A DNA stretch of 62,794 nucleotides, counting the filler, from Basidiobolus ranarum (lineage: Eukaryota), in the NCBI GenBank assembly GCA_040143965.1. It is 35 parts of 35 records of this genome, joined end to end, with 100 filler letters (N's around TTAATTAATTAA, not from the genome) between each part and the next. Parts side by side here need not be neighbours in the genome. Positions count along the whole stretch, not along the records: positions 19,830 to 21,528 come from JASJQH010011403.1; 34 more parts are not named here. One strand, written 5' to 3'. Under the pieces are notes generated by a model, which ran no database searches, was not told the origin of the DNA, and saw only the letters and a list, made by a program, of their open reading frames with translations. Position numbers and translations under genes: made by a program. This document shows, piece after piece, positions 6,310 through 59,315 of the stretch; the first letter of the stretch is position 1, and the number at the start of each line of letters is the position of its first letter.

Positions 6310-7118
6310 ATGCATTCTCTTGTTATTATCGGTTGGGTTGCTCTTCAAGCTTTAGTGTCTTCAGTTACTGCACAGGATGCTGGTGAAGGATTCATCTTTA
6401 AATGCGATCAGCCAGGTGCTTTCGCTTTGACCTTCGATGACGGTAAGTAGTGGTCCATACATGCATGTTCATTCATTCTCAAACTTACACTATAACAAGG
6501 TCCTGGTCTCTATACTACCTCTCTGTTGAAGATTCTTCAGGAAAAGCAAATAAAATCCACCTTCTTCCTCATCGGTAAGCAAGCAGCAGAACCAGCTTTT
6601 AGCAAACATCTAAAGCAAATCCTCGATGAGGGTCATCAAATTGGTTCTCATACTTATTCCCATCCTTCATTGAATAAAATCTCTCCCGAGATGATCAAGG
6701 AGGAGATGCTGAAAACGGAGAATGCTATTGAGGCAGCTTCTGGAGTAGTTCCCGCCATGATGCGTCCTCCCTACGGAGACTGTAATGAACAATGCAGAGT
6801 AGTGATGAAAGAGCTAGGATATCTGGTTATCCAGTGGAACATTGACTCTCAAGATTGGACCTTCATGGAACAGCCAAGTAAATTTGATACCCTCAAAGCT
6901 AATCTACTGAACGCTGCTACCAATGGTAATCCTAAGGTGGACAACTTTGTTTCCCTTCAACACGAGATTCTCAACTTTAGCGTTGAAAGAACTCCAGAGA
7001 TTATTGATGGAATCAAGGCTAAGGGTTACCATTTTGTCACTGTGAATGATTGCCTTGGCAATCGTTTCCCCATGTACAAGAACCGAAGCAACCCACCCTC
7101 CGAAAATGTTACCATTCC
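6310..7118 (+). CDS. Secreted carbohydrate esterase family 4 (chitin/polysaccharide deacetylase); exons 6310-6442 and 6500->7118, 3'-truncated
   Basis: Signal peptide MHSLVIIGWVALQALVSSVTA. A 57-nt intron (6443-6499, GTAAGT..AAG) restores TFDDGP. Motifs HTYSHP, RPPYG, DSQDW, LQHE. Confidence 0.95.
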
Positions 7119-9021: not shown

Positions 9022-9084
9022 CACAAAGCTATTCACAACTCCACTTTTCTAAAGTTCCTCCAAACAGCCCATATTTTCCCAATA
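9022..9084 (+). mobile_element. Copia LTR-C, 3' fragment
   Basis: CACAACTCCACTTTTCTAAAGTTCCTCCAAACAGCCCATATTTTCCCAAT is shared with 28821-28905 and the reverse complement of 20814-20880. Confidence 0.8.
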
Positions 9085-10116: not shown

Positions 10117-10724
10117 TTAGTCGTGTTGACGACCAGAACGAGAATGGCTCTGTTGATCATTTCTGCGGGAGATACCTCTTTCATATTCGTTATCATATTC
10201 ATCTTGCTCGTATTGACGACCGTAACGAGAGCGAGACCAGTTTTGTTGACCATTTGTGTGGGATATACCGCGTTCGTATTCGTTATCATATTCATCTTGT
10301 TCGTATTGACGACCATAACGGGATCGAGGATAGTTCTGTTGACCATTTCTACGAGAGATACCACGCTCATATTCATTATCATACTCGTCTTGTTCGTTTT
10401 GACGACCATATTGAGAGCGAGGATAGTTCTGCTGACCATTTCTGCCAGAGACACCACGTTCGTACCCGTTATCGTATTCATCTTGCTCGTATTGGCGGCC
10501 TTAATGAGAACGAGAATAGTTCTGTTGACCATTTCTACGAGAGATGCCACGCTCATATTCATTATCATACTCGTCTTGTTCGTATTGACGACCATAACTG
10601 GAACGAGGATAGTTCTGCTGATCATTACTGCCAGAGACACCGCGTTCATATTCGTTATTGTATTGACGACCGTAACGAGAGCGAGGATAGTTCTGTTGAC
10701 CATTTCTACGAGAGATACCACGCT
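10117..10724 (-). CDS. C-terminal part of an Arg/Tyr/Gln/acidic 31-aa repeat protein; one in-frame TAA at 10503-10501 (frame absent from ORF track)
   Basis: The frame from 10722 reads RGISRRNGQQNYPRSRYGRQYEQDEYDNEYE repeats ending ..GRQHD* at 10119-10117. Differences between units are mostly synonymous third positions in this frame. Confidence 0.8.
10130..10724 (-). repeat. 93-bp tandem repeat, about 6.5 units, partly alternating (186-bp higher order)
   Basis: TTCTGTTGACCATTTCTACGAGAGAT at 10334 and 10520 (186 apart), with a variant unit between them. Confidence 0.95.
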
Positions 10725-16130: not shown

Positions 16131-16230
16131 NNNNNNNNNNNNNNNNNNNNNNNNNNNNNNNNNNNNNNNNNNNNTTAATTAATTAANNNNNNNNNNNNNN
16201 NNNNNNNNNNNNNNNNNNNNNNNNNNNNNN

Positions 16231-18030: not shown

Positions 18031-19729
18031 AAGTGAGATTCCAACATTTTAATGCCTTCCAAAGTGGATAGTGGGTTGCTAGACTGCTCATTAATTAAGT
18101 CCTCTGTTCTTGCTGGTTTTTTATTTTTCTGCCTGCAGGCTTTGGCGTGGAATCCAATTTTGATTAAGATTTTGAAGACTTTTTGAATAGCATTGTAATT
18201 TTCAGATAGTAAACTTGGTGTAATGAAAAGGCTTTGAAATAGCTTGCAATAAGGCAAAATTACCATTCATTGCCAGAAATATCTTGTAAAAACCCTGATG
18301 ACTCATCTATGACACCGTCTCAGAATCAACTGATGATATTTAAGAGCTATTCCTAAAATACCACCCTTACATAGGAGGTTTTCTCTTTTCCGCACTATCC
18401 TTTCCATGCCACAACACAAATGCTTAAAGAAGCCCCGCTATTATTGTCACAAATTCTTGTGCTATGAAAGCTGAAAGCTTCATAGAAAAAATATTCACAT
18501 GCATGGTCACTGTACAAAGCCACCAGCTACACAAAGCCTGGTGTATAACAACTGTAATGACTGCCCTAAATTGACTTTAGTTTTGCCTATAGAGTCCATT
18601 GACTGTACTTTGCCTCAAAGCTTTGGTAACACTGCCAAAAGTCAAGATACCATGGAGTTACCACATTTATATGACCAGATGATGCAGGTAGATTTGCTGC
18701 TTTGGTCAATCCAGTAAGTCCAGACAACTTTGAGGACTTGCTGCTAGAGGTTGACCATTGGTATTCCAGTACTGAGGGTAGTATATCAGAAGTTGAAGAA
18801 GAAGACAATGGTTTTGTTATGGACTCTTTGTTATTGGCAAACATCAGTCCACTCATAACACTGACTGTAATGGAAGCAGCTATGATTAGCAAGGAGTGGA
18901 GAGTTCAATCCAATCTTAGCAACCAGGTATGTATTGGTTTTCTTACATTTTTACCACAGTTGACTGGCAACTGTTGCTTGCCACAGACCTGGTACAAGTG
19001 GAAAACATTTGTCAAATGTATGACTTTTAATATTTCAGTAATTAAACTGCCTTCATGTCCAAATGGTTGTTTGGCTGTCACTGGTGATCTGAAAAACCTG
19101 AAGTCATGTACTGTTTGCACACAATTGGCAATCACTGAATCAGGTAAATATTGATCACATTTGACCTACATACCATTGATTCCCCATCCTAAAGTTTTTA
19201 TGAAATCACCCAAATATAGATCATTGATCTAATACCAGAGTACTCACCATAAAGCTGAGGTATTACCAATACACTTGATGAATATAACTACCAGAATCTG
19301 AAAAGTCTAGGTTTCTTTGGGAATATGTATGATCATGCATTTGCATTGGCTCTAGATGGTTTCTTGCTAAATAAATATACCTTTGGAAAGGCTTGATGGC
19401 CAATAATTGTCATTAACTTAAATCTTCCTCCTTCTGAATGGTATAATTGTCATAATATTTTGATACTCTCCATCATATCTGGACCTAAATCACCAGTGCT
19501 TATAGATAGCTTCTTGGAGCCTTTGATTGCAGAATTTGAACAGTTATCCAATGGGGTTCAGATGGGTGAATATTTTTTTAAAGCTAATATCATTGTATGT
19601 ATTGGTGACACTCCTGCCATCAGTAACCTTGGAGATTTTTGTGGGCACAATGCACTATCTTGCTGTAGATTTTGTCAAATCAATGAAGTCTACTCAAACA
19701 GGCATACACATTACTACTATCCAAATACA
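18031..19729 (+). mobile_element. CACTA/EnSpm element: ORF2 start (minus, ATG 18193) and Transposase_21-type gene (plus, ATG 18406), degenerate
   Basis: SCPNGCLA..CTVC, FALALDGF, NLNLPP, IISGPKSP..DSFLEPL..E, GDTPA..GH....CRFC are hallmark motifs of fungal Tnp21/CACTA transposases. Confidence 0.93.
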
Positions 19730-19829
19730 NNNNNNNNNNNNNNNNNNNNNNNNNNNNNNNNNNNNNNNNNNNNTTAATTAATTAANNNNNNNNNNNNNNN
19801 NNNNNNNNNNNNNNNNNNNNNNNNNNNNN

Positions 19830-20495
19830 GTTTCTTTCTTTTATAACCTTTGTACTTGCCAAAGCTATGTTTTCCAGCTCCAAAAAGAGCCACTTCCTCA
19901 GATTCCTTTTCCAAATTCTTACTTCTGAGATGTTGATACATTTGCCTAGCCACCACAAACTCCAAAGACAACTTGTCAGATCTTGCTTCCAAAGCTGTCA
20001 CTATGTTTGAGTACTTTTCTGGTGGACTACTTGAAAGAGTCATAATGACATCTTCTTCCTGTAAAGTTGCACCAATATCTTCCAGTTGTTTTGCCAGAGA
20101 TCCCACATTTTCCATATGAGTAACCATGCTTTCAAACTTTTCCATCTTTATATTGGAGAATTTTTGTCGGAGAAAGAGTCTATTAGCAAGACTCTTTGCT
20201 TGATAACACTCTTCAATATAGTCCAAGCATGATGGGCAGTCTTTGCATATTGAAAATTCACAAGTTGTGAATCCTTCAAGCTTTGACAAATGATATCAAA
20301 GGCCTTCTTGTCTCTTTTCTTGTAAGCTTCCAATAAAGAAAGGCCAGACAGTTCCTTTTCATCTCCAGAGACTACATCCCAAAGCTCCCTGTCTTCCATC
20401 ATGATTTGCATCTTGAACTTCCCAAAATTGTAATTTTCTCCATCCAGCATTACAACAATTGAGTTAATAAAAGTGGTAGTAATGGCTTCTGTCAT
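19830..20495 (-). mobile_element. Copia family C gag (frameshifted)
   Basis: LDGENYNFGKFKMQ..LWDVV, NRLFLRQKF, LPEKY-like UBN2-type gag motifs. Confidence 0.9.
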
Positions 20496-20695
20496 GCTGT
20501 AAAGGTTAGAACTGTTGAAAGTCTGTGGACTGGTGGTACAAGCAGTAATTCCCAAAGAGGAAAATATGGAGTATGGTGACTGCATCTGAACACAAAGTCT
20601 AAGGCCAATCAGTTTCTTGTATAGCTGAAATACCAAAGTACCATATATTGATAGACTAGGTTAAGGTTCTCTAGCAGTATAGGCATAGCATATAA

Positions 20696-20768
20696 GGACT
20701 GGTAGCTCAGTGGTTAGAGCACCTTGCTAGAGTGAAGGAGGTCCCAGGTTCAAATCCCGGCCAGACCA
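20696..20768 (+). tRNA. tRNA-like gene or pseudogene, anticodon AGA, short variable loop, inside the Copia leader
   Basis: GGACTGG TA GCTC AGTGGTTA GAGC A CCTTG CTAGAGT GAAGG AGGTC CCAGG TTCAAAT CCCGG CCAGACC A is a 73-nt cloverleaf with intact A and B boxes and three stem mismatches. Confidence 0.8.
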
Positions 20769-20801
20769 ATATTTCTCACTAAATAATCTCAATAAGAACA
20801 T

Positions 20802-20813
20802 GGGTCTCATAAC
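20802..20813 (-). promoter_or_regulatory. Copia primer-binding site, half-tRNA-iMet type (GTTATGAGACCC)
   Basis: Directly follows the LTR-terminal CA; resembles the GGTTATG(A/G)GCCC PBS of copia/Ty5-type elements. Confidence 0.7.
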
Positions 20814-21113
20814 TGATTGGGAAAATATGGGCTGTTTGGAGGAATTTTAGAAAAGTGGAGTTGTGACTAGCTTTGAGAGTTAATTATTTATTGGCCAGAA
20901 ATAAAGTATTTATACATTTTGGAGATAATACAGAAAACTAACACTGGGGTTGTGTTCAGAACATCTGGTGGAGTAAAATGAGCTATTTTTGGGGCAATTT
21001 GGATGAGTTTGAAATTTCCAATATGGAATTGCTAATTCTCACATTATTCACATACATATATAATATATGTTCCAATTTTTAGCAAAGTGATATTTGACCA
21101 AGTAATGTTAACT
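20814..21113 (-). mobile_element. Copia family C 5' LTR (about 300 bp)
   Basis: Boundaries set by other copies at 9022-9084, 28821-28905 and 55088-55294; ends ..CCCAATCA before the PBS. Confidence 0.8.
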
Positions 21114-21528
21114 AGACTTGTTCCATTGGACCAGGTCAGATTGTGCTGCTTGATCCAGCCTCCTAGTACACCATCTGGCATGATGTGTCAATTACCATGG
21201 CTGGGTCCTATAACACTCAATTGGACTCTATAAGGAACAATATGGCACTATCCCACCACAATTGGACACATTGATTTTATTGGAGATATTGTGCCAGCCA
21301 ATACCGTGTTACCCAATTTAGTATTGCCAAATTGCAATTTTGGGTAACTGACAAAGTAAGTTCATCACCTAGTTTGTAACTCACAAATCACTGAATGTGT
21401 AATAATAAACAATTTCAACTGTAACTTACCCAATCAAATGTATAACCAAGACATTCACATGTTTTTAGGCCAATCATTTGTCCCTCACTAACACAGTATC
21501 CTGATTTTCAATTGGGCAAAACAGCTCC
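21113..21528. mobile_element. End of an unclassified DNA transposon (TAGACTTGTTCCAT terminus)
   Basis: The same terminus occurs at 32021, and inverted at 32191-32204 and 52478-52490, with recurring GTGCCA/TGGCAC subterminal motifs. Confidence 0.5.
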
Positions 21529-28820: not shown

Positions 28821-28905
28821 TTCTGGTCAATAAATAATTATCTCACAAAGCAATTCACAACTCCACTTTTCTAAAGTTCCTCCAAACAGCCCATATTTTC
28901 CCAAT
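28821..28905 (+). mobile_element. Copia LTR-C 3' fragment
   Basis: Reverse complement of 20814-20900. Confidence 0.8.
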
Positions 28906-28909
28906 AAGT

Positions 28910-30517
28910 ACATGATCAAGCCTTTGATTCACTGTGCACAATGCTTCCCCAAGCTCCTACTCTATCTTATCCTGACTTTTCCAAGCCTTTCTTTGTTGCT
29001 ACTGATGCATCTAATGTTGGGTTAGGGACAGTTCTTTACCAGGATGAAGACCAAAATCCACCTCATTGGATTTCTTTCCAAGCCAGATCTTTGCAGCCTG
29101 CTGAACGTAATTATTCTGCAACCAAGAAGGAATTACTAGCCATTGTATTTGCCCTCAAGAAATTTCACCAATATCTCTGGGGAAATCATTTTACTCTTTA
29201 CACTGACCACCGAGCACTTGTCTACATTCATACTCAGAAAACTCTAACACCAATGCTGACCAACTGGCTGGATACTCTACTGGATTATGATTACACTATA
29301 ATTCACCGCCCTGGAATTCTCAATATTCTACCTGATCACCTCTCCAGACTCTTTCCAACTTCCCCTTGGGAGGGACATGTGATTACTGATGTAATCAGCA
29401 AACTTACAACTACTACCAACTCAATCCCCCAGCAAGACCCAGATTCCAGAATTTGCCCACCGCAAAATGAAAGGAACAATCTCATTCAGCAATGCCACCT
29501 ACTAGGACACTTTGGAGCTGATACACTTATGAAGAAGTTGCACTCCAATGGATATCACTGGCCCAACATCAAGTCTGACTGCCTTGATTATGTAAAGTCA
29601 TGCAGAGAATGTCAACTTTACAATATCACATGCCATGGATTTCACCCTTTGACTGCAATACATGCTGAACTCCCTATGGATTGTATTGCTATTGATCTAG
29701 CTGAACCTTTCACAACCAGCAATGATGGAAATCACTACCTCTTTGTGATAGTAGATGTTTGTACATATTTTGTTTTTCTCAAAGCCCTACCAGACAAATT
29801 TGCTACTACCATTGCCCAAGCCTTATTCAAGCTATTCTGCCTCTTTGGATTTCCCAAAATCATTCAATCTGATAATGGAACCAAGTTTGTAAACCAAGTC
29901 ATCAAAGCACTCTGAAATAACTCTGCCATTGATCACAAACTGATCACTCCCTATCATCCTACAGCTAATGGACTTGCAGAAAGACATGTTCATACCTCTG
30001 TGAATATAATCCAAAAATCCATCAAAGGAGTCAAGAAGAATTGGGACAAGTCAATCCCAATGGTTCAATATGCTATCAACACTAAAATTGCTGCACTCCA
30101 TGGATCCACTCCATTCTCACTTATGTTTGGAAGAAAGTTTGACCCACTACAGAACTATTGAAATGTTCTACTCAAACCAATCAACACTGAAGATTTAGTC
30201 AAATGCCTTCAATTTCTAACAGATATAGTCTATGCTGGAATCAACTCAAGAAGCAAAAGTAGTCAACAGAAGATGATATCCAAGCACACTTCTAGACACA
30301 AGGCCACTAGTTTTCCTGAAGGTTCTTTTGTCATGACTTTAGATCCCATCTACCAATTCAAACTTGATCCAAGTATGAAGGTCCCTTCAAGATTATCAGA
30401 ATAACCACTGGAGGATCTTATGTACTTCAAGACAACACTGGAGCCTTACTACCCAAGAACTTTCCACCATCTTCTCTTAAACTTATTTCACAAGATCCTA
30501 TGACTACAGAATCATAT
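28910..30517 (+). mobile_element. Ty3/Gypsy pol: RNase H then integrase
   Basis: TDASNVGLG, ERNYSATKKELLAIV, YTDHRAL, H..GHFG, C.EC, IQSDNG; RH-before-INT order is Gypsy. Confidence 0.95.
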
Positions 30518-34769: not shown

Positions 34770-35906
34770 GTTTTGAAATTAGGTAAATAGCAACTTATGA
34801 TTTAGTTGCTAGTTTATTCACATTCTGATTATTTAGCACTAAATTCTGTCATTCAAGCATATGTTCAGTGCTTTAATTGGTAGAAATATCCATCAAATTG
34901 CTGTTATCTATTTTCACCATTTTCTCAAATCATCTCAAAATCATCTCAAATTTTCATCTATGCTTTACAGGCATGTTTGTTATGATCTAAGAATGTCCAA
35001 AAGACCTGTTTCATAGGAAACTATAAACAGGACATATTTAATTCAATTAAACTTAAATGTCTAAGTCTCAAATCCAACACTTGTCCAAAACACTTCCAAA
35101 TTCCTGAAAGACTATTATCAGGATATGAATCCCAAGCTAGCTGCTCCAGGAGTGTCTACCAGTACTATTACTGATGTTTTTGCATCCACAGAGAAGTTTG
35201 AAGGCAAAGACTCTCACCTTTGGAAGTTCCAGATGCAAATGGTATTAGAAGACAAAATTCATTGGGGATTTATTACAGGAGAAGAAATAGAGCCAAAGAG
35301 AGCTCCATACACTATCCTTGCCTTTCACAAGAAGCAGAGGAAAGCACTCTCTACACTTTGTCTACATATCAGATACTCTCAATTGAGGCACATACACTCA
35401 GCCAAAAATGTTTGAACTGTTTAGGAAACACTTGAGGCACTATATGAGACTAAAGGTCTGGCCAATTAGCTATATCTTAGGCAAATTATTCTTGATTGAT
35501 ATACATTCTGGTGATTCTATGGCTAATCATATAAATTTGATTAAAAATATGGCAGATCAGCTCTCATCCATTGGAGCACTTCTAAATGACAATGATTTAG
35601 TTATGGCATAACTTGGAAGCCTGCCAGACAAGTTTGGGAACCTCATAATTCCCCTAGAATCAAGATCAGAGCCATTCACAATAAAATATGTTGGTGCCAG
35701 GCTTTTGTCTGAGGTATTAGGGAGATCTAATTCTCAGCAAAATAATGCAGTTCAGGCTTTTTTTAGAGCAATAAACTGTCCAACAGGCCTCACTAAAGTG
35801 CCACTAATTTGAATTCAATCATCTGCAAGTATTGCAAGAAGCCAGGCCGTTAAATCAAAGATTGCAGACAAAGGCTTTTTGCCAAAAAGCTAAAATTGGA
35901 ACAAGC
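34770..35906 (+). mobile_element. Copia LTR-D (34770-35078) followed by gag (from 35125)
   Basis: The LTR matches 12943-13258 and ends TCCAACA. Gag FEGKDSHLWKFQMQMVLEDK and a decayed CKYCKKPG knuckle. Confidence 0.87.
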
Positions 35907-58066: not shown

Positions 58067-59315
58067 AGTTGTGATGTTCTTCTATGAATATACTCATTTG
58101 TATATATATTAGCAAAGACGGTTATATCAAACTTATAACATTGAGTTATTGATTAATATGATATTATCTATTAATTTATTAGCATATAGTTTGATCTTAC
58201 ACTAACCTACCAAGTACTTGGTTTTCATAAATATCAGTGCGAGATTGACGGTAGTACGGATGGTAGCATTGACAGAATGACTCGTGTTACGCTTATTCAA
58301 GTGTATTACTCAAAGATTGCACACAAGAATGTCACACCTTCACGTTGATACTATCTTCATTGTTGGTAGTAAATGCATATCCGAATATGAAAAGATCTTG
58401 ATGACTATGTGAGAGATCTGGCTGCAGACTAGGTTAAGTCGTTTTATATATTCCGGATGATAAGTAAAAGAAATACTGAAGTATTTATTGAATGCCCTCT
58501 TACTTTGCCGGATTGGAGGGTTATATTGTCGCACTTGAAGAAGCTCGCTATCCTTTGAATATATAGATAACATGGTTGGGACAAGACGAGTATGAATCTC
58601 ATTACTATGTAGAAGAAATCGATAGAATTGTTTATGATTTGGAGCTTTAGATGGTTTATTGCTTCATGCCTGGAATTAATGAATACAAGGTGATTATTTG
58701 ATGAGGGAAAATCTATTAGTAAGTCACAAATCATATTTGAAATTACACCCAAGACCTTTGATCAGACATAGTGGATATGCTCACATAGGTTAGAAGCACA
58801 CAATTGTGAAAACTGGCCAGTTTTGTGTGCCAAAGATTGATTAAACATGATTTTTGACAGCCCTGATACACTGGTCTCATAACAAGGCTCAATAAATGGG
58901 GCAAATAGGTAAAGTTCTTAAATACAAATAAATTTTATAAGTTTCCAGGAATTTGAACTCAAAAAGTAAGAAATACAGCTCGCTCACTATTTCAGATATC
59001 TTGGACAAGACAATCAGCTTCTGCCCCAGAAAATTTTTAGCACAAGCCTACTCTGATCCTTACCACCATTTGTTTAATATATCAATTTCTATCACTTGGA
59101 CTTCAATATCAGTTAAGCTTAGAAATTATCAAATCATCAACCATAATCCACAATTAACAGGCATATAAAATTTAAATACATCACAATATGGCTGTATCTG
59201 TCTATTTACTTATTANNNNNNNNNNNNNNNNNNNNNNNNNNNNNNNNNNNNNNNNNNNNTTAATTAATTAANNNNNNNNNNNNNNNNNNNNNNNNNNNNN
59301 NNNNNNNNNNNNNNN

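Follow-up and report, generated by a model that had tools for sequence, protein, structure and literature searches.

The window analysed in this work is a stretch of 62,794 nucleotides from the zygomycete fungus Basidiobolus ranarum, comprising 35 unplaced contigs of 1689-1706 bp each, which are ordered by size and joined by 100-nt linkers of the form N44 + TTAATTAATTAA + N44 (for example, at 16131-16230 and 19730-19829). Because the contigs are chained with linkers, any apparent synteny or ~1.8-kb periodicity across the window is an artefact. The true context of the tRNA-like sequence described here is a single contig of 1699 bp (19830-21528), and the rest of the window is not physically linked to it. 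On this contig, a 73-nt tRNA-like module (20696-20768, plus strand) has parts of a Ty1/copia-type element on both sides: the LTR end and the primer-binding site (PBS) on one side and the gag start codon on the other. The module is antisense relative to the LTR, PBS, and gag of this Copia fragment.

The GC content of the whole window is ~34%. In all contigs, CpG is found at 0.25 of expectation and TG and CA at ~1.3, while the counts of CAG and CTG look normal; three CpG are left in contig 19830-21528. Such a composition agrees with methylation and deamination of CpG in repeats over a long time. Transposable elements are abundant in the window, where Pfam searches detected gag, reverse transcriptase (RT), and integrase parts of Ty1/copia elements, parts of Ty3/gypsy elements, and the tnp2 transposase, the latter as a fragment of the CACTA/EnSpm-like type at 19397-19729 on the plus strand (PF02992 at 3.8e-14). 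In a homologue search with the RT sequences of the window, identities reached about 53% at most, and the sources of the homologues included plants and oomycetes; neither this search nor an Atlas search with RT was informative as to the taxon.

Other contigs carry sequences of different kinds. An intron-free ORF fragment at 6496-7116 (plus strand) encodes a polysaccharide (chitin-type) deacetylase (PF01522 at 8.6e-30), which shares 80% identity with a B. ranarum protein across 88% of its length and has fungal Atlas neighbours, most frequently from Mucoromycota. This ORF provides the sole taxonomic indication in the window. The contig at 7219-8921 (plus strand) is taken up entirely by a 120-nt unit present in 14 tandem copies (71% matches), which encode an uninterrupted protein of 567 aa built of a 40-residue Ser/His/Lys/Glu-rich repeat with no Pfam match; the remaining two plus-strand frames are largely open as well. 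Another tandem array, with a period of 93/186 nt (79-81% matches), occupies 10135-10724 and has long open frames on both strands, also with no Pfam match.

The Copia fragment and the tRNA-like module

The host element, Copia family C, is represented on the contig by the 3' part of its 5' LTR, the PBS, and the 5' part of gag, all on the minus strand. The LTR part (20814-21528) is cut by the contig end, and its inner terminus was placed at 20814/20815, a position that is certain within about 2 nt. The same terminus (LTR-C) was found on the contigs with 28821-28909 and 9022-9083 (reverse complement) at 92-97% identity and with unrelated flanks; the similarity among the termini begins at 20816, and the contig at 53944-55634 carries an internal part of LTR-C (90% identity). 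At 28821-28909, the LTR-C terminus adjoins a Ty3/gypsy pol fragment (28908-29915; RT_RNaseH, Integrase_H2C2, and rve domains), and this further nested insertion is consistent with heavy nesting of transposable elements in the assembly.

The PBS GTTATGAGACCCAT (20800-20813) directly follows the LTR end, its PBS-like motif GTTATGAGACCC occupying 20802-20813. The degenerate gag ORF (19830-20495, with the ATG at 20493-20495) was recognised by the Pfam domains Retrotran_gag_2 (4.4e-12) and DUF4219 (7.1e-06; 26.1 bits, just below the 27-bit cut-off). Its translation is broken, with stops, after ~115 codons, and this Copia copy is therefore dead; the contig ends at 19830. The gag ATG is adjoined by a remnant of the original Copia leader (20496-20507, minus strand). 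Two further candidates were discarded: an ORF upstream of the gag ATG (open to 20660), whose peptide looks non-coding, the Pfam domains beginning right after the ATG; and PBS-like matches at 58873 and 32840, which have no recognisable LTR-PBS-gag setting (the motif count in the window is 3 versus 2.7 expected).

The repeated LTR, the adjoining PBS, and the copia-type gag place the host element in the Ty1/copia group; pol is absent from the contig. The element is similar to Drosophila copia and yeast Ty5 in its gag domains and in its PBS, which complements the anticodon-loop region of the initiator tRNA-Met and not the tRNA 3' end; Kojima 2024 (PMC10886601) cites priming on this region for copia and Ty5. 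Unlike intact copia or Ty5, it is present on the contig only as an LTR end, a PBS, and a broken gag. Sequence searches with parts of the element gave no further relatives: gag residues 1-100 had 116 pattern matches in metagenome contigs and 3 in viral contigs, none of them confirmed; a 23-mer from the LTR end had no matches in metagenome or viral contigs; and no gag homologues were obtained at E <= 0.001 among longer proteins.

A preliminary description of the locus had given the minus-strand order as the LTR-C end, the PBS, 33 nt, a 73-nt cloverleaf on the opposite strand, about 200 nt, and the gag ATG (20495). All of these coordinates were reproduced: 33 nt separate the PBS-like motif from the module end, and 200 nt (20496-20695) separate the module start from the gag ATG. 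The gag and LTR-C assignments of that description are likewise upheld, by the Retrotran_gag_2 match and by the LTR terminus on two further contigs, respectively.

The tRNA-like nature of the module is supported by two programs. ARAGORN predicted a tRNA-Ser(aga) at 20696-20768 on the plus strand, the sole tRNA call in the whole window, and Rfam model RF00005 matched the same interval with 53.3 bits (gathering score 29; E = 1.2e-08) over model positions 1-71 of 71. Since Rfam gave no further tRNA hit anywhere in the 62.8 kb with E <= 10 as the limit, the module cannot be regarded as a chance match. The box A-like motif TAGCTCAGTGG (20703-20713, plus strand) and the box B-like motif GGTTCAAATCC (20747-20757, plus strand) are intact, as the preliminary description had stated, and match the consensus; with this consensus kept, the module could still bind TFIIIC or Pol III.

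In other respects the module departs from a genuine tRNA gene. The anticodon is AGA, in the loop CTAGAGT, and the variable loop has 5 nt. The tRNA-Ser species are defined by a long variable arm (class II), so that the previously noted misfit between a Ser anticodon and a class-I shape is real. The Rfam alignment contains three non-standard stem pairs (3-70 A.A, 31-39 G.G, and 51-63 A.C), of which the 51-63 mismatch (CCAGG opposite CCCGG) may be the expected product of CpG decay; the acceptor stem reads GGACTGG/CCAGACC. The predicted fold has an energy of -18.3 kcal/mol (z = +0.88), and 164 of 200 shuffled sequences fold equally well or better. A working tRNA-Ser gene is excluded by the short variable loop, by the mismatches in three stem pairs, and by a fold that does not surpass shuffled sequences. 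The absence of an encoded CCA at the 3' end of the module rules out a retro-copy of a mature tRNA. No terminator of four or more T follows immediately, in agreement with the preliminary description, the first run of at least four T being found at 20845-20848, 77 nt past the module end and inside the LTR. A 22-mer from the anticodon arm had no matches in viral contigs or prokaryotic genome contigs, and an 18-mer from the D arm had none in a literature text search.

A 282-bp unit enclosing the module

The module is contained in a 282-bp unit at 20513-20794 (plus strand), a candidate solo LTR of Helenus-like type by its termini, duplication, and architecture. The unit starts with TGTTGAAAG, opening with TGTTGAAA, and ends with CAATA, and the perfect 5-bp duplication AGAAC lies on either side of it, at 20508-20512 (left) and 20795-20799 (right); these termini and repeats are read directly from the DNA. 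Inside the unit, 183 nt precede the tRNA-like module and a 26-nt tail follows it. Both ends of the unit lie within the interval bounded by the gag ATG and the PBS, and the 200 nt from the gag ATG to the cloverleaf contain a single TGTTG pentamer, at 20513. The CAATA end is one transition away from CAACA, the inverse of TGTTG; its final TA, in place of CA, needs one C-to-T change. When the unit and one AGAAC are excised, the LTR end, GTTATGAGACCCAT, GTTCTAACCTTTACAGC (17 nt), and the ATG form one continuous Copia 5' region, and the corresponding empty site would read from the PBS directly into GTTCTAACCTTTACAGCATG.

Among all 5-bp direct repeats enclosing the cloverleaf, AGAAC is the one pair that delimits a unit with the termini TGTTG and CAATA, and this bracket was evaluated against 20,000 shuffles of both flanks that preserved dinucleotides. 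The combination of a start in TGTTG, an end in CA or TA, and a 5-bp duplication was obtained in 0.26% of shuffles, or in 0.25% when only the right flank was shuffled, under a TGTTG criterion that was picked post hoc from published Helenus LTRs. A looser test (TG start, YA end, and 5-bp duplication) was satisfied by 15.6% of shuffles. Across the whole window, a TGTTG start was encountered 3 times together with a CAACA-like end and a 5-bp duplication, versus 2.3 expected in shuffles. It is only the placement of the TGTTG bracket around the cloverleaf, inside the Copia leader, that is significant, and not a window-wide pattern.

No second copy of the unit was detected in the other 34 contigs (~58-60 kb) with either blastn (word size 7) or nhmmer (--max), and this absence is weak evidence, as ~58 kb is a very small sample of the genome. 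No full-length TRIM with the structure LTR-PBS-PPT-LTR was seen in the window. Two short repeats that could have connected the unit with the end of LTR-C, one direct (GGAAAATATGG, 11 nt; 20559-20569 and 20820-20830) and one inverted (10 nt, reaching the junction of this end with the PBS; 20605-20614 and 20811-20820), are at chance level and were rejected because 24-26% of shuffles reach the best local alignments.

Comparison with Helenus and other known elements

Helenus-like elements are short non-autonomous LTR retrotransposons with a tRNA-derived sequence in their LTRs. As TRIMs, they comprise two LTRs around a short internal part with a PBS and a PPT, measure less than about 1-1.3 kb in total, and lack coding capacity, and they form interspersed families of many copies whose duplications differ. 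According to Kojima 2024 (PMC10886601), the tRNA-like sequence of Helenus LTRs has a conserved box A, TRGCY...YGG, and a conserved box B, GGTTC, and the overall criterion for Helenus is LTR ends TG...CA with a 4-6-bp target-site duplication. The fungal members have 5-bp target-site duplications, often survive as solo LTRs, and are apparently mobilised by Copia elements, most of which have a PBS complementary to the tRNA-iMet anticodon loop; many of the fungal Helenus internal parts open with ggttatgagcccag, which is assigned to the same loop (PMC10886601). In that work, the origin of Helenus is proposed to lie in SINE2 insertions into LTRs, and most predicted tRNA-Thr-AGT and tRNA-Ser-AGA genes of rust fungi are recognised as Helenus; in Cronartium ribicola this holds for 154 of the 160 Ser-AGA calls, and in Uromyces viciae-fabae for 90 of the 95 (Kojima 2024, PMC10886601, Table 2). 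As far as Table 1 and the accompanying text of that paper indicate, the published fungal Helenus elements belong to Pucciniales and to Agaricus, Coprinopsis, and Amylostereum, and no wider fungal range was found among the matches listed for the later Helenus/TRIMp3 literature, part of which deals with butterflies or unrelated subjects.

The likeness of the B. ranarum unit to these published LTRs can be observed at several levels. Within the supplement of PMC10886601, TGTTGAAA turns up 10 times, always as the opening 8 bases of a fungal Helenus LTR consensus (Puccinia, Uromyces, or Amylostereum), and TGTTG starts all 7 of the fungal Helenus LTR consensus sequences among the matches listed. By a hand count, 13 of the first 14 bases of the unit are identical to those of Helenus-3_PGr-LTR. 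A hand alignment of the 73-nt module with that of Helenus-1_AmAr has 61 identical columns out of 74, including the acceptor stem, which in Helenus-1_AmAr reads GGACAGG/CCAGTCC; the two stems each carry one mismatch, different in the two, relative to a common fully paired form. The Rfam tRNA match of 53.3 bits and both promoter motifs lie inside the bounds of the unit, TAGCTCAGTGG and GGTTCAAATCC being the counterparts of the Helenus TRGCY...YGG and GGTTC.

The layout is similar as well. Helenus-6_CroRib-LTR, which is of the Ser-AGA type, and Helenus-1_AmAr-LTR share with the unit the succession of a long 5' part, the module, and a T-rich tail, which runs to a CA end in the two published LTRs; in Helenus-6_CroRib-LTR, ~140 nt of 5' sequence are followed by the module and by a 22-nt T-rich tail to the CA. 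Both modules have CTAGA in the anticodon loop, as does the module studied here, and the stretch from the D arm to the anticodon loop is common to the latter and Helenus-6_CroRib except for two small differences, as compared by eye. The anticodon loop CTAGAGT is one base apart from the CTAGTGT (Thr-AGT) of Helenus-2_CroRib and Helenus-2_PeMa. The unit is like fungal Helenus in the position of the module in the 3' part of an LTR of 100-320 bp, the short T-rich tail, the putative 5-bp target-site duplication, the TGTTGAAA start, the apparent solo LTR state, and the Ser-AGA/Thr-AGT-like tRNA call with its isotype misfit. The PBS of the host Copia, GTTATGAGACCCAT, has GTTATGAG and CCCA in common with the ggttatgagcccag of fungal Helenus, which indicates that Copia elements of that priming type are present in this genome; compared with the rust-fungus form, the host PBS has one inserted base.

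The unit differs from fungal Helenus in several respects. It is one solo copy that lacks a second LTR and an internal part with PBS and PPT; its 3' end is TA, not CA; and, apart from its first 8-14 bases and the tRNA-like part, it has no close match to the published Helenus families. The host is Basidiobolus, a zygomycete, whereas the published fungal families come from Pucciniales and a few Agaricomycetes. No k-mer of at least 21 nt is common to the unit and the published fungal Helenus in text whose FASTA line breaks could hide matches. The only two 21-mers that match the PMC10886601 supplement are from the generic D arm and correspond to one wasp family and one bivalve family, and shorter k-mers from the anticodon arm, the T arm, and the tail had no matches in the same supplement, where line breaks may hide some.

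Two other classes of elements were compared. Cassandra TRIMs are like the unit in carrying a Pol III small-RNA gene module within the LTR of a short non-autonomous element, but they represent a plant lineage with a 5S rRNA module, in contrast to the tRNA-derived module found here, and the window has no 5S rRNA match at gathering scores or at E <= 10. SINE2 elements resemble the module in the tRNA-like head, the A and B boxes, and the decayed cloverleaf. Their head stands at the 5' end and is followed by a body and an A-rich or simple-repeat tail, and their duplications vary in length. In the B. ranarum unit, unlike SINE2, 183 nt precede the head, no LINE-type tail is present, and the termini are of the LTR/integrase type with a 5-bp duplication.

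Origin of the tRNA-like module

The separate bounds, the LTR-type termini, the 5-bp duplication, and the likeness to Helenus argue that the module is a nested passenger, neither a component of the Copia leader nor a SINE. In the explanation that we consider probable, the tRNA-like sequence represents the module with the Pol III promoter in a nested Helenus-like solo LTR (20513-20794, plus strand), which is oriented antisense within the leader of a Copia element that is now dead. A Copia-type integrase would have inserted a Helenus-like element backwards into the very short leader separating the PBS from the gag ATG of the Copia element, duplicating AGAAC; recombination between the two LTRs would then have reduced the insert to a solo LTR. 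The host Copia copy is dead as well, and CpG loss has eroded the entire contig. We infer that the unit was the LTR of a TRIM and that a Copia integrase mobilised it. The Pol III activity of the module is putative.

The preliminary description had interpreted the cloverleaf as a Pol III/TFIIIC cassette owned by Copia family C, serving as a chromatin barrier or as a driver of antisense RNA. Such a native, family-wide component of the leader, or an insertion that was later kept by the family, is unlikely, and the bounded 282-bp unit with its duplication leaves the original proposal unsupported. The proposal agrees with the consensus-like A and B boxes and with the location of the module on the stretch that joins the PBS to gag, in a Copia 5' region that is collinear in all other respects, where the resulting leader of 318 nt is of ordinary length for Copia elements. 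A Pol III transcript would reach the first run of four T (20845-20848) and would thereby cross the PBS and the LTR end, and the duplication would also pass to the descendants of a Copia lineage that replicated with the insert. These points are countered by the location of the module within a unit that has LTR-type termini and a duplication of its own and that resembles independent mobile LTRs known in fungi, by the mismatched stems and the unexceptional fold of the module, and by the death of the Copia copy at 19830-21528. Moreover, no tRNA match lies upstream of the one other 5' region of a Copia gag found in the window, which belongs to a distant family (35065-35412).

In a variant of this proposal that seems slightly less likely still, Copia family C replicates with an antisense Helenus-type module fixed in its leader, that is, with a domesticated TRIMp3 LTR as a TFIIIC/Pol III element, which would either form a barrier or supply antisense RNA covering the PBS and U5. 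We know of no described case of an autonomous LTR retrotransposon that has domesticated a TRIMp3 LTR.

A comparably doubtful alternative is a single non-LTR insertion of a tRNA-derived SINE or of a tRNA gene or pseudogene fragment, with TGTTG...CAATA and AGAAC being coincidental. The heads of tRNA-derived SINEs have an equal A- and B-box structure, Helenus itself is derived by Kojima 2024 from SINE2 insertions into LTRs (PMC10886601), and the loose test of termini and duplication was not significant (15.6%). Furthermore, a second 5-bp repeat, ATAAG (20692-20696 and 20792-20796), abuts the tRNA start and would delimit, as judged by eye, a 95-nt unit ending in CA. However, a bracket of the strict TGTTG type seldom arises by chance (0.26%), and the features of a SINE are missing: the 33 nt before the PBS contain no A-rich or simple-repeat tail, there is no body beyond them, and 183 nt precede the head in the bounded unit. 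A SINE reduced to its head by 3' truncation would also be the reverse of the usual case, in which SINEs are truncated at the 5' end. A retro-copy of a mature tRNA is at odds with the missing CCA, and the head has no other copy in ~58-60 kb of repeat-rich contigs. The fallback of the preliminary description, a one-off insertion of a SINE or tRNA, comes close to the explanation preferred here.

It is highly improbable that a decayed host tRNA gene was trapped between the LTR-C end and a truncated Copia element starting at gag, or that the arrangement is an assembly chimera. The contig is an unplaced 1.7-kb piece of a repeat-rich, fragmented assembly, and the two other LTR-C ends abut unrelated DNA; but here the PBS comes directly after the LTR end, the gag ATG has the same orientation and a normal distance, and the excised junction is one continuous 5' region, so that a truncation precisely upstream of the gag ATG would be a needed coincidence, and the module is implausible as a functional tRNA. 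Read-through into the primer tRNA during plus-strand synthesis, considered as a source of an antisense tRNA copy, was rejected because the module has no CCA, lies 47 nt from the LTR end, and is placed behind a different PBS.

An autonomous Copia element with a Pol III cassette of its own, which is not favoured here, would bear on how retrotransposons resist or exploit silencing. The nested Helenus-like LTR, if correctly identified, is a matter of ordinary biology, one mobile element being nested in another, and would provide a clean example of the odd tRNA predictions (Ser-AGA with a class-I shape) that arise in fungal genomes rich in transposable elements and that represent LTR modules, not genes. 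A Helenus-type LTR in Basidiobolus would extend the LTR elements bearing Pol III promoters to early-diverging fungi and would support repeated or ancient origins of such elements, tied to the priming of Copia on the tRNA-iMet anticodon loop.
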